DNA of 52,257 bases from positions 1 to 52,257 of the forward strand of contig JAQBRI010000001.1 in assembly GCA_028286585.1 (NCBI GenBank), written 5' to 3'. Below, piece by piece: positions 2,040 through 52,257 of the stretch. Position numbers and translations under genes: made by a program. Below the pieces are notes generated by a model. The model made no database searches. It was given only the letters and a program-made list of their open reading frames with translations, and was not told the DNA's origin. The DNA comes from Candidatus Kaiserbacteria bacterium (GTDB taxonomy: Bacteria; Patescibacteriota; Minisyncoccia; Phycocordibacterales; UBA2100). Each line of letters opens with the position of its first letter. Within the stretch, counting starts at the first letter, position 1.

Positions 2040-5000
2040 ATGAGTAAATCGCAACGCGCGGATCTTCCGCAAAAGTATTTTGGGCGCTACAACAAGCCTC
2101 TTGTTGAAATGCCAAACCTGGTTGAAGCACAATTGGAATCATTTCGCACCTTTGTCAAAGAAGGTGCCGGTCGCGTACTCAAGGAGTTTTCTCCGATGAC
2201 AGATCACGCAGGCAAAAAGTTTGAACTTACGATCGACTCGTTCTCTTTTGGAGAAATTCGTACAGACGAACAATATGCCAAGCGAATGAATAAAACGTAC
2301 GAAGCACCACTCTCGGTCAACGTTACACTTAAAAACAAGACAAACGGCGCAGAAAAAGAACAAGAGATTTTCTTGGCTGATGTACCATGGATGACCAATC
2401 ACGGAACATTCATCATCAACGGCGTCGAACGCATCGTCGTTCCACAACTCGCTCGTAGTTACGGCGTGTTTTTTGAGGGTATTCCATACAAGGCAAAGAA
2501 TTACTTTGCTGCAAAAATAATCCCAGCTCGCGGTGTTTGGATCGAAATTGAATCTGATGCTGATGGTGCTATGTACGTCAAAGTCGACCGAAAGCGTCGA
2601 TTTCCTGTAACTTCGCTTTTGCGCATCTTGGGTCTTGTTACCGACGCTGATATTGCAGCCGAATTTGCAAAGACTCCTGCAGCCGAGACGATTGCGATGA
2701 CACTTACGCACGACACTGCAAAGAAGCAAGAAGAAGCATATATCGAAATATACCGCCGCCTCCGCGATGGTGATATTGCAACACTTGAGACTGCTCGTGA
2801 ATACGTCAAGTCAATGCTTTCAGAAGACCGTTACGACCTTTCAAAGGTAGGACGATTCCATTTCAACCGACGTTTCGACCTCCCAACAGACGAGAAGAAG
2901 CACCAGGGAGCACTTTCTTTGAGTGATTTTGTTCGTATCATCACACATATCTCAGAATTGAATGCGAACCCACATGCAGAAAGTGACGACATCGACCACC
3001 TTGGACTTCGCCGCGTTAGATTTACGGGAGAACTCCTTGAACAGCGTATGCGTGTTGGACTTTCTCGTATGAAGCGAAACATCCAGGATCGTATGGCAAT
3101 TGTTGATCCCGATACCACAGCACCGGTATCCATGATCAACCCGCGTCCTTTCCAAGCTGCAATTCGTGAATTCTTCACCACAGATCAACTTTCACAGTTG
3201 ATGCAACAGTACAACGCACTCGACGAAATCGAACACCTTCGAACACTTTCGACATTGGGTCGTGGAGGTCTTACTTCGGAGCGAGCAGGACTCGAGGTTC
3301 GTGACGTGCACCCTTCTCACTACGGCCGCGTTTGTCCTATTCACACACCAGAAGGTAAAAACATCGGTCTCGTATTGCACATGTCTCTCTATGCTCGTCC
3401 AAACGAATTTGGAATCATCGAGACTCCATATGCCAAGGTCAAGAAGGGTATCATCAGTGATGAAATCGTATACCTAAACGCACTTGAGGAATCACAATAC
3501 GCTATCGGTCACGCTGCTATTCCACGAAGTGATGCAGGACGTATCACTGCAGACTTTGTTGAAGTTCGCCGACACGGTGACCCAACACTTGTCTCTCGTG
3601 AAGAAGTCGATTTGATCGAAGTTTCAACCAACCAACCATTCTCTGTTGCAACATCACTTATTCCGTTTGTTGAAAACGACGACGCTAACCGAGCACTCAT
3701 GGGTTCGAACATGCAAAAACAAGCTGTTCCTCTCGTTGTTCCAGAAGCACCAATCGTAGCAACTGGCGTCGAAAGCATCGCAGCTCGCGACTCAGGACGT
3801 TTGATTCATGCTGAAGAAGCTGGCGAAGTTACCGCAGCTGACGCTCGAATCATTACGGTCAAGGGAACCAGTGGCAAGAGCAAGGATTACTCTCTTGTTA
3901 ACTTTTCTCGAACCAACGGATTTACAACATTCCACCAGCGTCCAACAGTTTCTGTTGGCGACAAGGTAAAGCGAGGTGACTTGCTTGCAGACTCTTCGAC
4001 ATCGGTTGGAGGTCAGCTTTCTATTGGTCAAAACGTTCGTGTGGCATTCTTGCCTTGGTTTGGAGCAAACTTTGAAGACGCGATCGTTATTTCAGAAAAA
4101 ATGGCAAAGCTCGCAAAGTTTAGTTCTATTCACATGGAAGAGTTTGTTTGTGTTGTTCGCGACACCAAGCTTGGTCCCGAGGTAACAACCCACGATATTC
4201 CAAACGTTTCAGAATTCAAACTTCGTAACCTTGATGAGGAAGGAGTAGTTCGCATCGGCGCAGAAGTACGCCCTGGGGATATTCTCGTTGGTAAGGTTAC
4301 TCCAAAGGGAGAGACACAATTGTCTCCTGAAGAGCGACTCTTGCATGCAATCTTTGGTGAAAAGGCAAAGGATGTAAAAGACACATCAATGCGCATGGAA
4401 GGCGGCAAGCGAGGACGTGTCATTGGTATCAAGATCTTCTCACGCGAGGGAGGCGACTCACTCGAAAGTGGCGTTATCAAGCGAGTGCACATCGAAGTCG
4501 CACAACTCCGAACCATCTCGGTTGGAGACAAGCTCGCGGGGCGACACGGTAACAAGGGTGTCATCTCACGAATCTTGCCAGAAGAAGATATGCCATTCGA
4601 TAAGGACGGAAATCCTGTCGACATCATTTTGACTCCACTCGGCGTTCCATCTCGTATGAACCTCGGACAGATTTACGAAACACATCTTGGTCTTGCAGCA
4701 GAAATGCTTGGATACCAGGCGGTTGTACCATCATTTGCAGGAGCAACTGATACAGAAATCAAAGATGAACTTACAAAGGCGGGACTTTCTCCTGACGGTA
4801 AGCGAACACTCTTTGACGGACGCACAGGAGAAGCATTCGCACAGCCAGTTATGGTTGGCGTAATGTACATGCTCAAGCTGCACCACATGGTTGAAGACAA
4901 GATTCACATGCGTTCGATTGGTCCATACTCACTTACTACGCAACAGCCACTCGGCGGTAAAGCTCAGAACGGCGGTCAGCGCGTGGGAGAAATGGAAGTC

Positions 5001-12316: not shown

Positions 12317-13222
12317 ATGACAGTTAGTAAGCATGCAAAGAAAAAGACTGCAAAAAGGAGCAAGAAAGAGCCTTTGATACCTACAGAGTATTTGATGGAT
12401 CCGCCTATCAAACATTGGAGCCATTCGTCGCTGCTCTCATTCTTGCGTAATCCATTGGTATGGTACAAGCGCTACGTTGCAAAAGTATTTGATACACCCA
12501 GCAACCCTTCGGGGATTATTGGCCGTTCTGCGCACGTTGCGCTGCAGCACTTTTATGGCGGTATCAGCAAGGAAGGGGCAATCGAACTGGGGCTCGAATA
12601 TTTGCGGAATGTGCCAGATTTCGAAATTAATTTTGGCAAGGCAAAATCCCGCAAAGCACAGCGAGAAAAGCGCCAAGCAATGGAGCGTGATTATATGCAA
12701 GCGATATCCTTTTACTTGGCAAAACCGCCGCGACACAAGGTACTCGCGGTTGAATTTTCAGGTGTCGCCCCAGTGCCTGGTTTATTACTGCCAGTAAAAG
12801 CTGTTTCGGATTTGGTTGTCGTTTCAAAAATCGATCCAACCGCAGTTGATATAGTCGACCATAAGTTTGTCGATAATTTTAGTGCACAGCGGGAGCGTAA
12901 GACACTTTTTATACTACAGGCGATATTTAATTACTACACGGTGCGCCAATATTTTGGCAAAGAAGTACGAAGGTTCATCGTATATGAGTGTAAAAAATCT
13001 CGCAACAAAAATGGCTCACCGCAGATGCGCAGATACATTATTGACTACTCTCTGCACAAAACAGAGTTTGAGCTATTTAGTCGTCTTATTCACGATGCCA
13101 CAACAGAAATTATGCGTAAGCGTTTGTACCTACCTAATCCGTCGGATATGTTTGATGGGGAACACTCGTTCGACTTGTACCGCCTCGGTATCGTAGGCGA
13201 TGATATTAGTTACGACTCTTAA
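12317..13222 (+). CDS. PD-(D/E)XK nuclease superfamily protein (RecB/Cas4-like fold, no Cys cluster)
   Basis: N-terminal WSHSSLLSFLRNPLVWYKRY, then SDLVVV...DIVDHKF (D...D-x-K) and LQAIFNYY (QxxxY). This motif order is typical of RecB-family nucleases. Assigned from motifs only. Confidence 0.55.
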   Translation: MTVSKHAKKKTAKRSKKEPLIPTEYLMDPPIKHWSHSSLLSFLRNPLVWYKRYVAKVFDTPSNPSGIIGRSAHVALQHFYGGISKEGAIELGLEYLRNVPDFEINFGKAKSRKAQREKRQAMERDYMQAISFYLAKPPRHKVLAVEFSGVAPVPGLLLPVKAVSDLVVVSKIDPTAVDIVDHKFVDNFSAQRERKTLFILQAIFNYYTVRQYFGKEVRRFIVYECKKSRNKNGSPQMRRYIIDYSLHKTEFELFSRLIHDATTEIMRKRLYLPNPSDMFDGEHSFDLYRLGIVGDDISYDS

Positions 13223-24751: not shown

Positions 24752-25366
24752 ATGGATTTGCCCCTCATACCGCCGATTATAGTAAAGACGCTCACAAAGC
24801 CATTCGACGACCCGGAGTGGTCATTTGACCTCAAATACGATGGCTTTCGCGGTGTTGCCTATATTCAGAGTGCTGACGGCAAGATCATTTCGCGGGAAAA
24901 TCACCGGCTTTCGCGTTTTACGCCACTCGAACAAAAGCTTCCCAAGGTTCTCGGAGTCACGGATGCAATCTTTGATGGTGAAGTTGTTGTGTTCGACGAA
25001 TCAAAAAAATCGATCTTCAAGGAAATGCTCCGAACAATCTATGAACCAACGTATGTTGCGTTTGATTTGTTGTGGCTAAATGGCGTCGATCTGCGCGAAC
25101 TTCCGCTTTTGGAACGCCGCCGCAGACTGCACAAATTGCTTGCTAAAAAGGACGAGGCAATTCAGGAGGCTTTCTCGGTACCTGGGCGAGGAATTGCACT
25201 GTTCGATAGCGTTTGCAAATACGATTTCGAAGGCATCGTTGCAAAAAAGCTTTCATCTCCATATCGCAAAAAGGTAGAATGGTTCAAGATCAAAAATCCC
25301 GAGTATTCTCAAATGCCGAATCGCTCCAAGATCTTTAACGCAAATCGCACCCGTTCAAAAAAGTAA
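24752..25366 (+). CDS. ATP-dependent DNA ligase-like nucleotidyltransferase domain protein lacking an OB domain (204 aa)
   Basis: Motif I FDLKYDGFRG (KxDG, Lys28), motif III FDGEVVVF, motif IIIa YVAFDLLWLNG, motif IV EGIVAKK, motif V WFKIKN. The stop falls about 20 aa after motif V. RBS GGGAG upstream. Confidence 0.75.
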   Translation: MDLPLIPPIIVKTLTKPFDDPEWSFDLKYDGFRGVAYIQSADGKIISRENHRLSRFTPLEQKLPKVLGVTDAIFDGEVVVFDESKKSIFKEMLRTIYEPTYVAFDLLWLNGVDLRELPLLERRRRLHKLLAKKDEAIQEAFSVPGRGIALFDSVCKYDFEGIVAKKLSSPYRKKVEWFKIKNPEYSQMPNRSKIFNANRTRSKK

Positions 25367-36256: not shown

Positions 36257-37546
36257 ATGGACTTCATAAAAAAAATCATAGTAGCAATTCTTACACTCGA
36301 AGCACGCCTGGTGCTTTGGCGGTATAAGCCTCGCATTATTGCGGTCACCGGCAGTGTCGGAAAAACTACTACCAAAGATGCAATTTTTGCCGCACTTTCT
36401 TCAAATTTGCACATACGCAAAAGCGAAAAAAGTCTCAACAGTGACTTTGGCGTGCCGCTCACAATTCTTGGGCTTGAGAGCGGTTGGAATGATCCTTTAA
36501 AGTGGTTTAGTAATATATTCCAAGGATTATTACAAATTCTTATTCGCACTAATTATCCAGAATGGCTTGTGATAGAAGTGGGGGCAGACAGGCCGGGTGA
36601 CATTCGTCGCATCGCGCGCTGGCTGCGGCCAGACATTGCTGTGATTACTGCGATTCCAAAAATTCCCGTACATGTCGAATACTTTGCATCGCCCGAAGAA
36701 GTGTTTAAGGAAAAACGCGCGCTCGCAGAATATCTTAAGCCAGGCGGTACACTCGTATTGTATGGAGACGACAGTCGATTACAGAATGCTAGTACCCTTT
36801 TCCAGGGAGCGACTGTTACCTATGGTTATGATGATAAGAACACCTTTACCATCTCGCACGACGCCATACTGTATGAGGGTTCTACTCCGACCGGTATTTC
36901 ATTTAGGGTAGATTATGCTGGTGCGTCTATTCCTATCGTATTGTACGGAGCACTAGGAAGGCCACGAGCGTATGCGGGAACAGCGGCACTTGCAGTTGCA
37001 ACCATAATTCAAAACAACATGATCGAGGCAGGGCAGTCGCTGGGCAATTGGACACCTTCTCCTGGACGACTGCGACTAATTCCGGGAATGCATAACTCAA
37101 CTATCATCGACGATACCTATAACGCATCTCCCGCAGCTACAACAGCCGCGCTTGATACGCTCAAAAATGTTTCGGCACAGCGAAGAATACTTATGATTGC
37201 CGACATGATGGAACTTGGAAAATATTCTGCTGATGCGCATAAAGAAATAGGAGTCTATGCTGCAGCATGTTGTGACGTACTCATCACTGTTGGATTTCGT
37301 GCGCGAGCAATAGCCGAGGCGGCGCTTGATGCTGGCATGCGTGACGAGCAAGTACTGCAATATGAGCAAGGTGAAAGTGAGCGAGCAGGACTCGAGCTTG
37401 CCCCAAACGTGAAAGAAGGGGATGTAATTCTGGTCAAAGGATCACAGTCGATGCGGATGGAAAAGGCTGTCGCTGCTCTGCTTGCTCAGCCAGAAAAGGC
37501 AGCAGAACTTCTCGTTCGGCAGGATGAAGCGTGGCAAAATAGATAA
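36257..37546 (+). CDS. murF: UDP-N-acetylmuramoyl-tripeptide--D-alanyl-D-alanine ligase
   Basis: P-loop VTGSVGKTTTKD and Mur ligase middle and C-terminal domains (IDDTYNASP, VKGSQSMRME). Confidence 0.85.
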   Translation: MDFIKKIIVAILTLEARLVLWRYKPRIIAVTGSVGKTTTKDAIFAALSSNLHIRKSEKSLNSDFGVPLTILGLESGWNDPLKWFSNIFQGLLQILIRTNYPEWLVIEVGADRPGDIRRIARWLRPDIAVITAIPKIPVHVEYFASPEEVFKEKRALAEYLKPGGTLVLYGDDSRLQNASTLFQGATVTYGYDDKNTFTISHDAILYEGSTPTGISFRVDYAGASIPIVLYGALGRPRAYAGTAALAVATIIQNNMIEAGQSLGNWTPSPGRLRLIPGMHNSTIIDDTYNASPAATTAALDTLKNVSAQRRILMIADMMELGKYSADAHKEIGVYAAACCDVLITVGFRARAIAEAALDAGMRDEQVLQYEQGESERAGLELAPNVKEGDVILVKGSQSMRMEKAVAALLAQPEKAAELLVRQDEAWQNR

Positions 37547-37572
37547 AAATACGCTATTATCCTGAATACAAG

Positions 37573-37610
37573 GGCCCTATCGTCTAAAGGTTAGGACGGA
37601 TCCTTCTCTG
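37573..37610 (+). pseudogene. Orphan 5' half of a tRNA-Glu(CUC)-like gene (acceptor 5' strand, D-arm, anticodon stem 5' strand and loop)
   Basis: GGCCCTA-TC-GTCT-AAAGGTTA-GGAC-G-GATCC-TTCTCTG. Of the first 36 nt, 31 are identical to the intact tRNA-Glu at 37747. No 3' half follows. Confidence 0.7.
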
Positions 37611-37665
37611 GTTTGAATAGAGTGAGATGCGAATACTTGGAGCTTCGCAAGACCGGAGAGCGACG

Positions 37666-37691
37666 GCTCGAGGTGGGGTCGAGCAATTTTT
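37666..37691 (+). terminator. Terminator-like hairpin downstream of the tRNA half
   Basis: GCTCGA-GGTGGGG-TCGAGC, then AA and TTTTT. Confidence 0.6.
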
Positions 37692-37746
37692 CAGCAGAAA
37701 AATATGCGTGACCGATTCTGTGTTTTCGTAGTATAAATATCATATT

Positions 37747-37821
37747 GGCTCTATCGTCTATCGGTTAGGACACATCCTTCTCAAGGATGGAAGCAGGGTT
37801 CGACTCCCTGTAGAGTCGCCA
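37747..37821 (+). tRNA. tRNA-Glu (anticodon CTC), CCA encoded
   Basis: GGCTCTA-TC-GTCT-ATCGGTTA-GGAC-A-CATCC-TTCTCAA-GGATG-GAAG-CAGGG-TTCGACT-CCCTG-TAGAGTC-G-CCA. Confidence 0.92.
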
Positions 37822-41789: not shown

Positions 41790-42049
41790 AAACCTCAGAA
41801 ATTGGCGCATTTCCTCCTCCGCCACACTTGTAGCAATTGGCCAATGGCGCGGGGAATCTTTTGAAATAAAGAGCATAAGCTGAACGATGCATGGTTTTTG
41901 AAAGCCCCTCGGAAGGCGACGGCCTGAGAGGAGCAATTCGCGACCACGCGAATATGCGAGTTTTCAAAAATTATGCTGAGTAAGCAGTTTTGCGCATGAT
42001 CTCAGCAAGAGATTTTGAGTGGAATATCTGCCAACATATGCTACAATAA

Positions 42050-42307
<258 letters not shown>

Positions 42308-42322
42308 TACGGCTATTCTTGT

Positions 42323-49352: not shown

Positions 49353-49490
49353 TTTTACCAAACTCATCGACATACAGACTCGAAAGAACGCTGTATTTTT
49401 CTGCTGAAAAATCAGCTCCCTCTCGTGCCGTCGCACTCCGAGAGTCTTTCTCACCTGTACGTCTCGGCGAGTTTGGTACATACTATATCT

Positions 49491-50070: not shown

Positions 50071-50403
50071 ATGGCAACTAAGCTTTATGTAGGTGGTTTG
50101 CCTTACGCAACCACTGAAGATGAACTTCGCTCAGCATTCGCTGGCGCAGGCAACGTTACTTCTGTAGCTATCATCATGGACAAGATGACAGGCCGCTCGA
50201 AAGGGTTTGGCTTCGTCGAAATGTCTTCTGATGCAGAAGCTCAGACAGCAGTCGAAACTATGCACGGAAAGGATTTTGGTGGCCGAACTCTCACAGTAAG
50301 TGAAGCTCGTCCTCTCGAAGACCGACCTCGCACAGGTGGCAACGGTGGTGGAGGCAATCGCTTTGGCGGTAGCAGCGACCGCGGTCCTCGAAACTGGAAC
50401 TAA
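50071..50403 (+). CDS. RRM-type RNA-binding protein with a Gly-rich tail
   Basis: RNP2 KLYVGGL, RNP1 KGFGFVEM, and tail GGNGGGGNRFGGSSDRG. Confidence 0.88.
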   Translation: MATKLYVGGLPYATTEDELRSAFAGAGNVTSVAIIMDKMTGRSKGFGFVEMSSDAEAQTAVETMHGKDFGGRTLTVSEARPLEDRPRTGGNGGGGNRFGGSSDRGPRNWN

Positions 50404-50528: not shown

Positions 50529-52257
50529 ATGAAGTCTCTCAGCACTCTAAAACACTACATGTTTTCCGGGAGATGGATGTTCTCTTTTATAATTTTTTTG
50601 TCCCCAGTATTTGCCTTTGCCACCACGTACACTCCCGGCCAAACCCTTGATCCAAGTTGTACGCCATCCGACCCAACCTGTCTCGTCGTTGGCCCGGCAA
50701 CAAATGTCGCAGGAATATTTACCGCAACAAGCACAACGCAAGCCTCGACATTTCCATACGCATCATCAACTGCGCTCACTGTCGTTAACTTCTTTGGTAC
50801 CAATGCTCAAATATTTGGCTCCTCCACCATTGGCAATGGTACGCAAGTGGGTGGGCTTACTATCTCGGGCGGGGCGACGACAACAGGGCAGTCGCTTTTC
50901 ACGAGCGCGAACTTTCCAGTCATTAAGGTTCAGCGGACATTCACAACGGGCCTGGGGGTCCTGAACACGGTAGCTACATTTGATAAATACTCATCCAGTG
51001 GCGGAATGGCCGACGGCTTCGGTCCGGGCATCGGCCTTACCATCAGTACCGTTGGCTCGGAGAATAACCTCATTGCGCGGGTCGGCGCGGTACGCGACGG
51101 TGCAGACAATTCAGGCAAACTATCGTTCGCGACGTACAACGCCGGGGTCTCAAGCGAGAACATGGTAATCACCTCTGCCGGCAACGTCGGCATCGGTACC
51201 ACAACTCCGTGGGGTAAGCTTTCAGTTTCTGCAGCCGCCAACGCATCTAGTCCGCAGTTTGTTGTTGCTTCAACAACTGCGGTGAGTTTCATGGTTGATA
51301 AAAGTGGAAATGTTGGGGTTGGAACGACAACGCCAGATGCAAAGGTTGCAATTAGTGGAGATGCGCAAGGAGCGGTTAATTCAAATCTATTATTCCATGT
51401 CGGAGATACTGCTGCTCGAGCACTTACAGGCAGCGTGGCACAGATTATAAATAACTCACAATCACCGGGAGGACTTGAAGTACGTACTACACAAGCTAAT
51501 TCATTCAATGATGCGCGCATACTTGTTGTTGCCAATGACGGTTCATACTTGGGCATGGGTCAAGCGAGTTCCATATACGCAGGTAGTAACATATTCGGAA
51601 GCCCTCGCGCCTCTACATCATTCATATTCAACAGTTCAGGAAACGAGGGAGGTGCCGTACGCGACCTAGCAATAGGAACTGTAAATGCGAAAGATTTAAT
51701 CTTGGGTACAAATAATGCTGAGAGTATGCGAATCAAATCGGGCGGCTTCGTCGGCATCGGCACCTCCACCCCCACCGCCCAACTCTCAACCACCGGAACG
51801 GTCAGATTCAGTAACTTCGGCGCAGGAACCCTCACAACAGACGCCAGTGGTAACCTCTCAGTCTCCTCAGACGAAAGACTCAAAAACATCGACGGACAGT
51901 TCACTCGCGGACTCTCAGACATCATGAAGCTCTCACCCATTAGTTACCACTGGAATCAACTCTCCGGACTCGATACCACCACCTCCTACTCTGGCTTCTC
52001 TGCACAAAACGTACAAACTGCTATTCCAGAAGCAGTTGGCTCAAGTACCAATGGATTCCTCACCCTCCAAGACCGTCCGATTCTTGCTGCAACCGTGAAT
52101 GCGATTAAGGATATTGGAAGTGTTACGGGGATATTCAAAGATGGTCTTGTTACATTTCTTATCGGTTGGTTAGGGGATTCGAATAACCATCTCTCAACAA
52201 TTCATACTGACCGACTGTGTGTAGGCAATACTTGTCTCAACGAATCTCAGATACAGC
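50529..52257 (+). CDS. Secreted tail-fibre-like repeat protein with a C-terminal peptidase S74 intramolecular-chaperone domain (3' end off-window)
   Basis: A frame with no stop runs from ATG 50529 to the window end. It is absent from the ORF track, presumably because no stop codon is reached. Signal peptide MKSLSTLKHYMFSGRWMFSFIIFLSPVFAFA. Three G-x-V-G-(I/V)-G-T-(T/S)-T-P repeats. SSDERLKNIDG...LSPISYHWN...LQDRPILAATVNAIKDIG. Confidence 0.8.
   Translation, partial: MKSLSTLKHYMFSGRWMFSFIIFLSPVFAFATTYTPGQTLDPSCTPSDPTCLVVGPATNVAGIFTATSTTQASTFPYASSTALTVVNFFGTNAQIFGSSTIGNGTQVGGLTISGGATTTGQSLFTSANFPVIKVQRTFTTGLGVLNTVATFDKYSSSGGMADGFGPGIGLTISTVGSENNLIARVGAVRDGADNSGKLSFATYNAGVSSENMVITSAGNVGIGTTTPWGKLSVSAAANASSPQFVVASTTAVSFMVDKSGNVGVGTTTPDAKVAISGDAQGAVNSNLLFHVGDTAARALTGSVAQIINNSQSPGGLEVRTTQANSFNDARILVVANDGSYLGMGQASSIYAGSNIFGSPRASTSFIFNSSGNEGGAVRDLAIGTVNAKDLILGTNNAESMRIKSGGFVGIGTSTPTAQLSTTGTVRFSNFGAGTLTTDASGNLSVSSDERLKNIDGQFTRGLSDIMKLSPISYHWNQLSGLDTTTSYSGFSAQNVQTAIPEAVGSSTNGFLTLQDRPILAATVNAIKDIGSVTGIFKDGLVTFLIGWLGDSNNHLSTIHTDRLCVGNTCLNESQIQ
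51874..52150 (+). repeat. Diverged duplicate of window nt 1-277 (S74 domain coding sequence)
   Basis: By-eye alignment shows 11 mismatches in the first ~137 nt, one 3-nt indel later, and the same reading frame. Confidence 0.85.

Follow-up and report, generated by a model that had tools for sequence, protein, structure and literature searches.

A tRNA-Glu(CUC) gene after murF probably interrupted by a four-helix repeat element in a Candidatus Kaiserbacteria genome

Organization of the locus

The window analyzed here is a stretch of 52,257 nucleotides from a Candidatus Kaiserbacteria bacterium (contig JAQBRI010000001.1), and the locus under study lies directly downstream of its murF gene (36257-37546). 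In this order it contains the 5' portion of a damaged tRNA-Glu(CUC) gene (copy 1; 37573..37621, + strand), a structured repeat element of 91 nt (copy A of the element; 37622..37712, +), a short piece assigned to the T-arm of copy 1 (37713..37723, +), a spacer (37724..37746, +) and an intact tRNA-Glu(CUC) gene (copy 2; 37747..37821, +). An earlier note, made from the letters alone, had described the part upstream of copy 2 as an orphan tRNA 5' half that breaks off at the anticodon and continues into a hairpin-rich tail with a terminator. The stretch 37573-37723 is read here, with a probability of about 0.8, as the native tRNA-Glu(CUC) gene after murF, inactivated by the repeat element in its T-loop.

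A promoter-like site for copy 1, GTGGCA-18-TATTAT, was found by consensus scan directly after murF (37531..37560, +). Copy 2 was called by both ARAGORN and Rfam (tRNA, 52.7 bits) and is the only tRNA called in the region. At 37573-37746 neither ARAGORN nor Rfam RF00005 reports a tRNA, even at E≤10; a tRNA profile run with nhmmer matches positions 1-34 in the 5' portion of copy 1.

The damaged tRNA gene

Nucleotides 37573-37608 are the 5' part of a tRNA-Glu(CUC), as had been recognized before, with 31 of 36 positions identical to 37747-37782 in the downstream tRNA. Agreement is closer (34 of 36) with positions 4401-4436 of L001, which together with L002 is the closest relative (MurF 90% identical in amino acids, murF 79% identical in DNA to the window). 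The comparative loci, designated by L numbers, are pattern-selected 8-kb blocks, and the labels of the metagenome-assembled genomes (MAGs) are as deposited. In L001 murF is followed after 26 nt by an intact tRNA-Glu(CUC), whose promoter flank is that of the window, and in L123 (66%) a tRNA-Glu likewise follows murF directly; the fragment is therefore regarded as the native tRNA-Glu gene of this position. The flank AAAAATACGCTATTATCCT...ACAAG is common to the window and the intact orthologous tRNA of L001, and is found more loosely in L003.

Of the earlier view that similarity ends after the anticodon, with neither T-arm nor acceptor 3' strand, only the loss of the acceptor strand was borne out. 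With the element (37622-37712) removed, the remainder aligns along the whole L001 tRNA with a score of 107, against 39±5 for shuffled sequences. On the 5' side of the element, 37609-37621 (TGGTTTGAATAGA) aligns to the part of the L001 tRNA after the anticodon (AAGGCTTAAATCAGAG; p=0.02) and comprises an anticodon-stem 3' strand GGTTT (L001: GGCTT), a variable loop GAAT (L001: AAAT) and a T-stem 5' strand AGAG (L001: CAGAG); G37622 and T37623 may be assigned either to the tRNA or to the element. On the 3' side, CGATTCTGTGT (37713-37723) corresponds to the 3' part of the T-loop and the T-stem 3' strand (positions 56-66) and agrees with L001 CGATTCTCTGT in 10 of 11 positions (p<0.0005 in a test of the region 37713-37746). 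Judged by these alignments, the T-loop of the native tRNA, and not its anticodon loop, is the site of the element, so that the insertion breakpoint suggested before was right in kind and wrong in place. The apparent break at the anticodon is due to point damage there, namely a 6-nt anticodon loop and a T29×T41 mismatch.

The T-loop that results when the element is removed is 1-2 nt short, and the acceptor 3' strand is gone. Because of this loss and the lesions of the anticodon arm copy 1 cannot make a tRNA, and it is classified from its sequence as a pseudogene. A regular-expression search for a 3' tRNA half on both strands of the window found, besides the 3' end of tRNA-Glu(UUC), a chance occurrence of TGGGGTCG within the element and nothing with a T-arm and an acceptor strand; nor does the window hold a complementary leader of the kind expected for a split tRNA. 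Two readings of the tail as tRNA were given up. TGGGGTCG (37675-82) had been considered as the missing acceptor 3' strand behind an insert of about 45 nt in the T-arm; this stretch belongs to the repeat, in alignment with other copies. MAFFT had placed 37620-37655 on the tRNA 3' half at about 59% identity, as if by graded decay; this alignment was dropped once the repeat had been recognized.

The spacer 37724-37746, read from the sequence, contains an AT-rich, promoter-like TATAAA upstream of copy 2. It is possibly the decayed acceptor strand and native trailer of copy 1; it does not resemble the L001 trailer significantly (p=0.13). The 3' end of the element (GTGACC) and the TATAAA 18 nt further on (37708-37737) resemble a -35/-10 pair before copy 2, and the insertion may on this resemblance contribute to a predicted promoter of that gene; the consensus scan called no promoter at 37708-37737.

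The intact tRNA gene and the closest relative

Copy 2 starts 34 nt downstream of the element and differs from copy 1 at 13 positions, among them compensatory changes at the pairs 4-69, 27-43 and 52-62. Because of these changes it is considered a coherent gene and not a chimera; a mixed host and element origin is ruled out by the same pairs. Its 3' end and downstream flank are kept in L001, where the intact tRNA is followed by a gene of the major facilitator superfamily (MFS), then by CCCTGTAAGGTC, a 3' scrap of a second tRNA, and then by a gene for a 99-aa protein; the flank between the second tRNA and the 99-aa gene is common to L001 and the window. The common ancestor of the two carried both tRNA-Glu loci, and each lineage lost a different one. 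Decoding is attributed, on sequence grounds, to copy 2 as the predicted functional gene. Neither of two other candidate links to L001 held: the tail shows no similarity to the L001 MFS gene, of which it might have been a remnant, and a decayed element before the tRNA scrap of L001 is not supported by the covariance model.

Structure and boundaries of the element

The tail 37622-37712 is, by sequence comparison, one discrete repeat unit. It is 92% identical to a copy in L027 over exactly 37622-37711 and 85-86% identical to copies in L076, L065 and L083. Homology to these four loci ends exactly at 37622 and 37711/12, and they have no other DNA similarity to the window. Copy A is matched over its full length by covariance model R2 (88.3 bits, E 9e-22) and scores 70.5 bits with model R1. 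The view of the tail as non-repeated sequence was thereby overturned; there are copies at 49390-49454 (-) and 41892-41962 (+) of the same window and in more than 100 other genomes.

An alignment of 32 long-form copies over 90-92 nt (copy A and 31 others) yields a common order of parts. The 5' end GUGAG is followed by helix H0 (UG, a bulged A and 7 bp), by CGCAAG, by a 3-bp outer stem with a GGA/GA internal loop, by the 4-bp helix H1 with an invariant GACG loop, and by H2, a helix of 15 bp that has an AGCA loop and one bulged A and runs to the 3' end GUGAC. In copy A these are found at 37623-37632 / 37640-37649 (H0), 37652-54 / 37672-74 (outer stem with GGA / GA), 37658-61 / 37666-69 (H1, GACG loop) and 37678-92 / 37697-37712 (H2, AGCA loop, bulged A37704). 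H0 lies 1 nt from the 5' end of the element and H2 at its 3' end. None of the 32 long-form copies has inverted termini; the short forms of the family are flanked by long inverted repeats that are specific to a locus or subfamily.

The fold is conserved. In the long form 95.5% of the alignment cells at paired positions can pair, with compensatory change in 25 of 31 pairs, and the covariation score is 0.644, against 0.209 for shuffled alignments and about 0.1 when partners are slid. For the short model the values are 97.6% of cells paired and 16 of 17 pairs compensatory. The excess of GU/UG over AC/CA combinations (28 vs 6), together with the pair 65-93, which is only GU (15) or AU (14), indicates that one strand is the one that folds. 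The invariant loops and the internal loop point to a putative specific protein partner. The tandem GA pairs led to a comparison with TIGR-Tas box C/D arrays, whose architecture does not match. A coding remnant is excluded, as no frame is conserved between copies A and B and the indels are not multiples of three; an open reading frame (ORF) of 50 aa on the reverse strand (37591-37743) is considered spurious.

This fold replaces the helices described before. In the supposed outer helix 37606-12 / 37652-60 one strand is tRNA sequence specific to the locus, and the other takes part in different, covarying helices in the family; the supposed inner helix TGCGAA/TTCGCA corresponds to the real H0 paired in another register. 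A terminator-like pattern (GCTCGA/TCGAGC) does exist at 37664-37691; it is not conserved in the family (51.6% of cells paired vs 49.3% in shuffles), and its 'U-run' is the 5' strand of H2.

No Rfam 15 family matches any of the three window copies, even at E≤10, noise apart, and a literature search of open-access text found no description of the element. Judged from these comparisons, it is a strongly covarying four-helix repeat, absent from Rfam and previously uncatalogued.

Two rival explanations can be judged at this point. The first takes the 91 nt as an intron, removed by splicing so that copy 1 would work. The element does lie exactly between two halves of the T-arm, and its bulged A 8 nt from the 3' end and its terminal AC bear a faint likeness to group II/III introns. 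The exons, however, have no acceptor 3' strand, since the sole TGGGGTCG is inside the element; they leave the short T-loop, the 6-nt anticodon loop and the TxT combination at pair 29-41; no tRNA or intron model matches; and an intact copy of the same tRNA always stands beside such insertions. Splicing is therefore held to be highly improbable. Still less credence, next to none, is given to plain decay of one tandem tRNA duplicate. The two ancestral loci, of which L001 keeps copy 1 with a 3' scrap of copy 2 and the window keeps copy 2, would suit it, as would the point lesions in the anticodon arm; yet the inner 91 nt, which are 85-92% identical to sequences of unrelated genomes and score 88 bits with the family model, cannot arise by decay. 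Decay explains only the secondary lesions.

Copies in the window and in other genomes

The window carries three copies of the element, about one per 17 kb, and a covariance model built from these three matches just those three in the window. Copies A, B and C have two hairpins in common, with compensatory changes. Copy B is a short form between msrA and msrB (49390..49454, -; R1 83.7 bits, R2 44.2 bits), whose products match Pfam PMSR and SelR. Compared with the tail at the tRNA locus it gives a Smith-Waterman score of 81, against 27.6±4.7 for shuffles, and an nhmmer E-value of 2e-5. It is flanked by imperfect inverted repeats (49356-49387 / 49445-49478). With these repeats of about 35 nt copy B fills the msrA-msrB spacer (49356-49478), antisense to both genes, and the whole spacer can form one long hairpin. 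Copy C, also a short form, lies downstream of atpB (41892..41962, +; R1 82.1 bits, R2 32.4 bits) and has covarying helices H1 (AGGC/GCCT) and H2 (AUUCGCG/CGCGAAU). Between atpB and the next called atp gene there is a gap of 530 nt (41790-42322) that contains copy C; no + strand ORF of at least 50 aa is listed in it, where atpE would be expected. The idea that copies A and B are the ends of an 11.8-kb transposon was rejected; syntenic housekeeping genes lie between them, and the third copy is inside.

The element is widespread in Patescibacteria, the candidate phyla radiation (CPR). A degenerate pattern found at least 119 stretches in a collection of species-representative genomes, all of them in CPR MAGs, labeled Paceibacterota, Kaiser-, Nomura-, Niyogi-, Yonath-, Harrison-, Taylor-, Vogel- and Zambryskiibacteria, Minisyncoccia, one Levyibacteriota and many Saccharibacteria. 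Among 2.9 million viral contigs the same pattern had no match. Another 37 loci came from metagenomes, by means of a pattern made for the window's own subtype. With the covariance model, 115 copies were counted in L004-L083 and 46 in L084-L122 (161 in 119 loci), often several per 8 kb. Of 118 copies 115 are intergenic, and orientation to protein genes is near-random (56:41), which would be expected of selfish DNA rather than of an element of mRNAs. A search of the 52-kb window for transposases, integrases and reverse transcriptases was negative, and no gene of these kinds is recurrent among the neighbors within 2.5 kb of 115 copies.

Dense arrays, tandem and inverted, in which 8 kb hold as many as six elements belonging to several subtypes, were seen in L047, L060, L062, L012, L033 and L007. 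Common to them are additional conserved flanks, namely TTTGTCATCCTCGTGAA (5' side) and TACTC.CGGG (3' side).

These data bear on the proposal of a chimeric small RNA, in which the native tRNA promoter would drive the tRNA 5' part and the element as one functional RNA (a decoy, regulator or guide), with a terminator of its own in the earlier version. In its favor, L001 and the window agree well in the promoter and at positions 1-36, the strand that would be transcribed is the one on which the element folds, and a tRNA 5' part joined to an element recurs in other genomes. The position of the junction, however, is different in every case, the elements occur in varied intergenic contexts and both orientations to genes, many of them behind terminators, and the terminator hairpin of the window lacks conservation. 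Taken as one RNA, the 123-nt stretch folds no better than its shuffles (z=0.05). The junction of tRNA part and element was found neither in the closest relatives (L001 has the intact orthologous tRNA) nor in a locus-specific scan of the metagenome collection, nor in any other sequence searched. A functional chimera is accordingly judged very unlikely, and insertion of a mobile element into copy 1 is preferred.

Association with tRNA genes

The element is found near tRNA genes more often than expected. Within 300 nt of a tRNA gene lie 31 of 118 copies, where about 8% would be expected (an estimate from 111 tRNA genes in 895 kb), and 28 of these 31 are on the same strand as the tRNA. A tRNA or tRNA fragment occurs within 450 nt of 53 of 164 copies. 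Two layouts recur.

Layout 1 starts with an intact tRNA. Behind it come a terminator hairpin, the 3' end of that tRNA in inverted copy (up to 18/18), a short-form element and last a directly repeated stretch of the tRNA, which begins at T-loop position 56 and stops 1-3 nt past the tRNA end. Examples are L039 (direct repeat of 19 nt), L083 (21 nt), L004, L041 and L016. Layout 2 is the type of the window. A tRNA runs from its 5' end up to some site and breaks off there at the element; 10-18 nt of its continuation come next, and an AT-rich spacer (30-85 nt) separates this remnant from an intact copy of the same tRNA. It was found with tRNA-Arg (L021, anticodon stem), Phe (L022), Ser (L043, D-loop), Ile (L052, L099 and L107, D-stem) and Ala (L100, L113 and L122, D-stem), and in L068. 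Comparison of interrupted and intact tRNAs shows that the left junction of layout 2 is always ...G|TGAG, with 1-3 nt of the tRNA missing and no target duplication; the last letter of the left flank is G in every case, and AGAG is frequent there without being fixed. In the young cases L021 and L043 the spacer matches neither native flank. In the other tRNAs the insertion points vary and include the D-loop, the D-stem, both strands of the anticodon stem and the T-loop.

In L107 the outer tRNA-Ile is complete but in three pieces. One break is the element; the second is a related element, antisense in the anticodon loop, which carries an intact tRNA-Ile between long inverted repeats. This 'type II' element (L107 3000-3420; L052 ~800-1130) has the form GUGAG-H0-GCAAG-ACCUUUUGAG ... 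CCAAAAGGU-GUACAGNUCCUGUAAGG, and copies without cargo were seen in L022 (~3854, - strand) and L122 (3648 and 6717, + strand). In L068 (2335-2700) the intact tRNA 3' of the element, missed by ARAGORN, has an insertion of about 300 nt in its anticodon loop, possibly a group I intron. A tRNA-Leu(CAA), a terminator and an element stand together in L014 (~4500), L034 (~1213) and L005 (~5145), alignable over about 250 nt at 73-76% identity, which points to long retention at an orthologous site as far as the alignment can tell. An origin of the tRNA copies from mature tRNA by reverse transcription was discarded: the duplicated 3' ends carry gene flank and not CCA.

A direct repeat of the tRNA 3' end is the classic mark of tRNA-targeting integrases. 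The locus could accordingly be an integrase-type scar, the element being a conserved arm of a miniature integrative element and the tRNA fragments duplicated attachment sites; the window would then hold an unusual '5'-type' product, with incoming DNA bringing a promoter and a tRNA 5' part. The direct repeats of layout 1 (L039, L083, L004) favor this, as does the order of tRNA, MFS gene and 3' tRNA scrap in L001. Such a repeat with a restored tRNA, found at those three loci, is not seen in the window, where there is a 5' fragment, sequence of the copy-1 type stands on both sides of the element, and copy 2, with 13 nt of difference, is coherent. The remark in the earlier note that a 5' fragment would be unusual for an integrase scar was fair, and the pattern is recurrent in this family. 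Against the scar also stand the scatter of insertion points, the absence of an integrase in the window and of a recurring one near the copies, the lack of viral matches and the many copies far from any tRNA. It is regarded as unlikely, though less so than a chimeric RNA; insertion of a non-autonomous element into copy 1 remains the preferred reading.

Proposed mechanism and points against it

According to the preferred reading, a non-autonomous mobile element would have inserted in the T-loop of native copy 1. Its movement would have been in trans, with a folded single strand as the most likely form, as suggested by the strand-specific fold, the absence of terminal inverted repeats and of a target duplication in the long form, the ends GUGAG...GUGAC and the insertion after G. 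Taken from sequence features, the strand-specific fold, the conserved termini and the lack of inverted ends and duplication point towards an HUH/IS200-IS605-like enzyme or a recombinase acting on a folded substrate; the direct repeats of layout 1 point towards integrase-like recombination. The insertion in copy 1 would be tolerated because copy 2 supplies the function, and insertions in tRNA genes would in general last only if a spare tRNA copy is already there or is brought along.

Several observations weigh against this scheme. Mobility is concluded from the distribution only, because none of the enzymes looked for was found in the window or recurrently close to the 115 copies. No pair of empty and filled sites is available in a close relative; the nearest is at 79% identity in murF DNA, and the insertion event itself was not seen. 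Simple insertion explains neither the loss of the acceptor 3' strand nor the remnant of 10-18 nt that faces the intact copy in other genomes. The promoter (29/33) and the first 36 nt (34/36) are unusually well kept, which could reflect a recent event or selection on a transcript, and the tRNA and element arrangements conserved between species (L014/L034/L005) hint at retention for function.

A broader proposal is put forward tentatively, as one that is rather more doubtful than probable: the element and its relatives may be a new class of structure-defined mobile elements of CPR that target tRNA genes by 'self-compensating' insertions, in which each interrupted tRNA is paired with a spare intact copy. 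In at least one related element (L107/L052) the spare tRNA sits inside the element, between long inverted repeats. If true, such elements could colonize single-copy essential genes in minimal genomes, and their spread between lineages might use conserved tRNA sequence as homology arms.

Genomes of such small size are thought to hold little selfish DNA, and the element bears on the survival of mobile DNA in them. It also bears on the origin of tRNA gene fragments and duplicates in CPR and on tRNA annotation in MAGs. At the window locus a pseudogene with a repeat takes the place of the supposed tRNA-half RNA, which should not be annotated as a gene.

Comparison with known systems

With MITEs (transposable elements of the miniature inverted-repeat type) and the repetitive extragenic palindromes and their doublets (REP/REPIN) the element has in common that it is short (65-115 nt), non-coding, multi-copy, intergenic in either orientation and hairpin-forming; its short-form copies (window copy B, L075/L037/L070) also bear long flanking inverted repeats. 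It differs from them in that the long form has neither terminal inverted repeats nor a target-site duplication, in its asymmetric core of four different helices with invariant GACG and AGCA loops, a GGA/GA internal loop and a bulged A, in the conservation of its sequence across many candidate phyla, and in its strong same-strand tie to tRNA genes.

Palindrome-associated transposable elements (PATEs) derived from IS200/IS605, which move as single strands by a Y1 HUH transposase, resemble it in the absence of inverted ends and target duplication, in conserved sub-terminal imperfect hairpins with a strand-specific fold, and, less clearly, in insertion beside a short target (here ...G|TGAG, where the flank ends in G without being fixed). 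Unlike in IS200/IS605, no TnpA/TnpB was found, 1-3 target nt are lost at the junction, and the interrupted targets are truncated and accompanied by an intact copy.

Like tRNA-targeting integrative elements (genomic islands and tycheposon-like elements), the family prefers tRNA genes, and many of its loci have a direct repeat of the tRNA 3' end from the T-loop that leaves the tRNA intact. Unlike theirs, the inserted DNA can be less than 200 nt and lack an integrase, 5' as well as 3' fragments occur, insertion points cover the whole tRNA, and the tRNA 3' end is often repeated, exact and inverted, as the 5' flank. Split or intron-containing tRNA genes (the split tRNA-Glu of Nanoarchaeum; bacterial group I introns of the anticodon loop) also show a tRNA 5' part followed by structured non-tRNA sequence. 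The window differs in having no matching 3' half or complementary leader and no match to an intron model, and in the T-loop position, the damaged gene and the complete gene adjoining it.

Neighboring genes and further observations

The spacer between murF and the tRNA-Glu is a hot spot for cargo in L001 (4496-5724) and L003 (4310-5745); in L003 a gene for a 268-aa protein and a MazE/PemK toxin-antitoxin pair lie between murF and the tRNA. In L124 (MurF 64% identical) a tRNA-Glu(UUC) by murF is followed by a GC-rich structured insert (3826-4075), flanked by inverted and direct copies of the tRNA 3' end in the layout of the element family. This insert scores weakly against the model (7-9 bits) and may represent a divergent sister family.

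The window as a whole is housekeeping chromosome of a member of Patescibacteria, with rpoB/C, dnaG, rpoD, the mraZ-murF cluster, the atp operon and msrA/B; its MurF homologues are Kaiserbacteria/Paceibacterota-like. Four further genes code for a PD-(D/E)XK nuclease (12317-13219), a short ATP-dependent DNA ligase adjoining tRNA-Glu(UUC) (24752-25363), an RRM-domain RNA-binding protein (50071-50400) and a large Peptidase_S74 (endosialidase chaperone) protein that continues past the end of the window (50529-52256).

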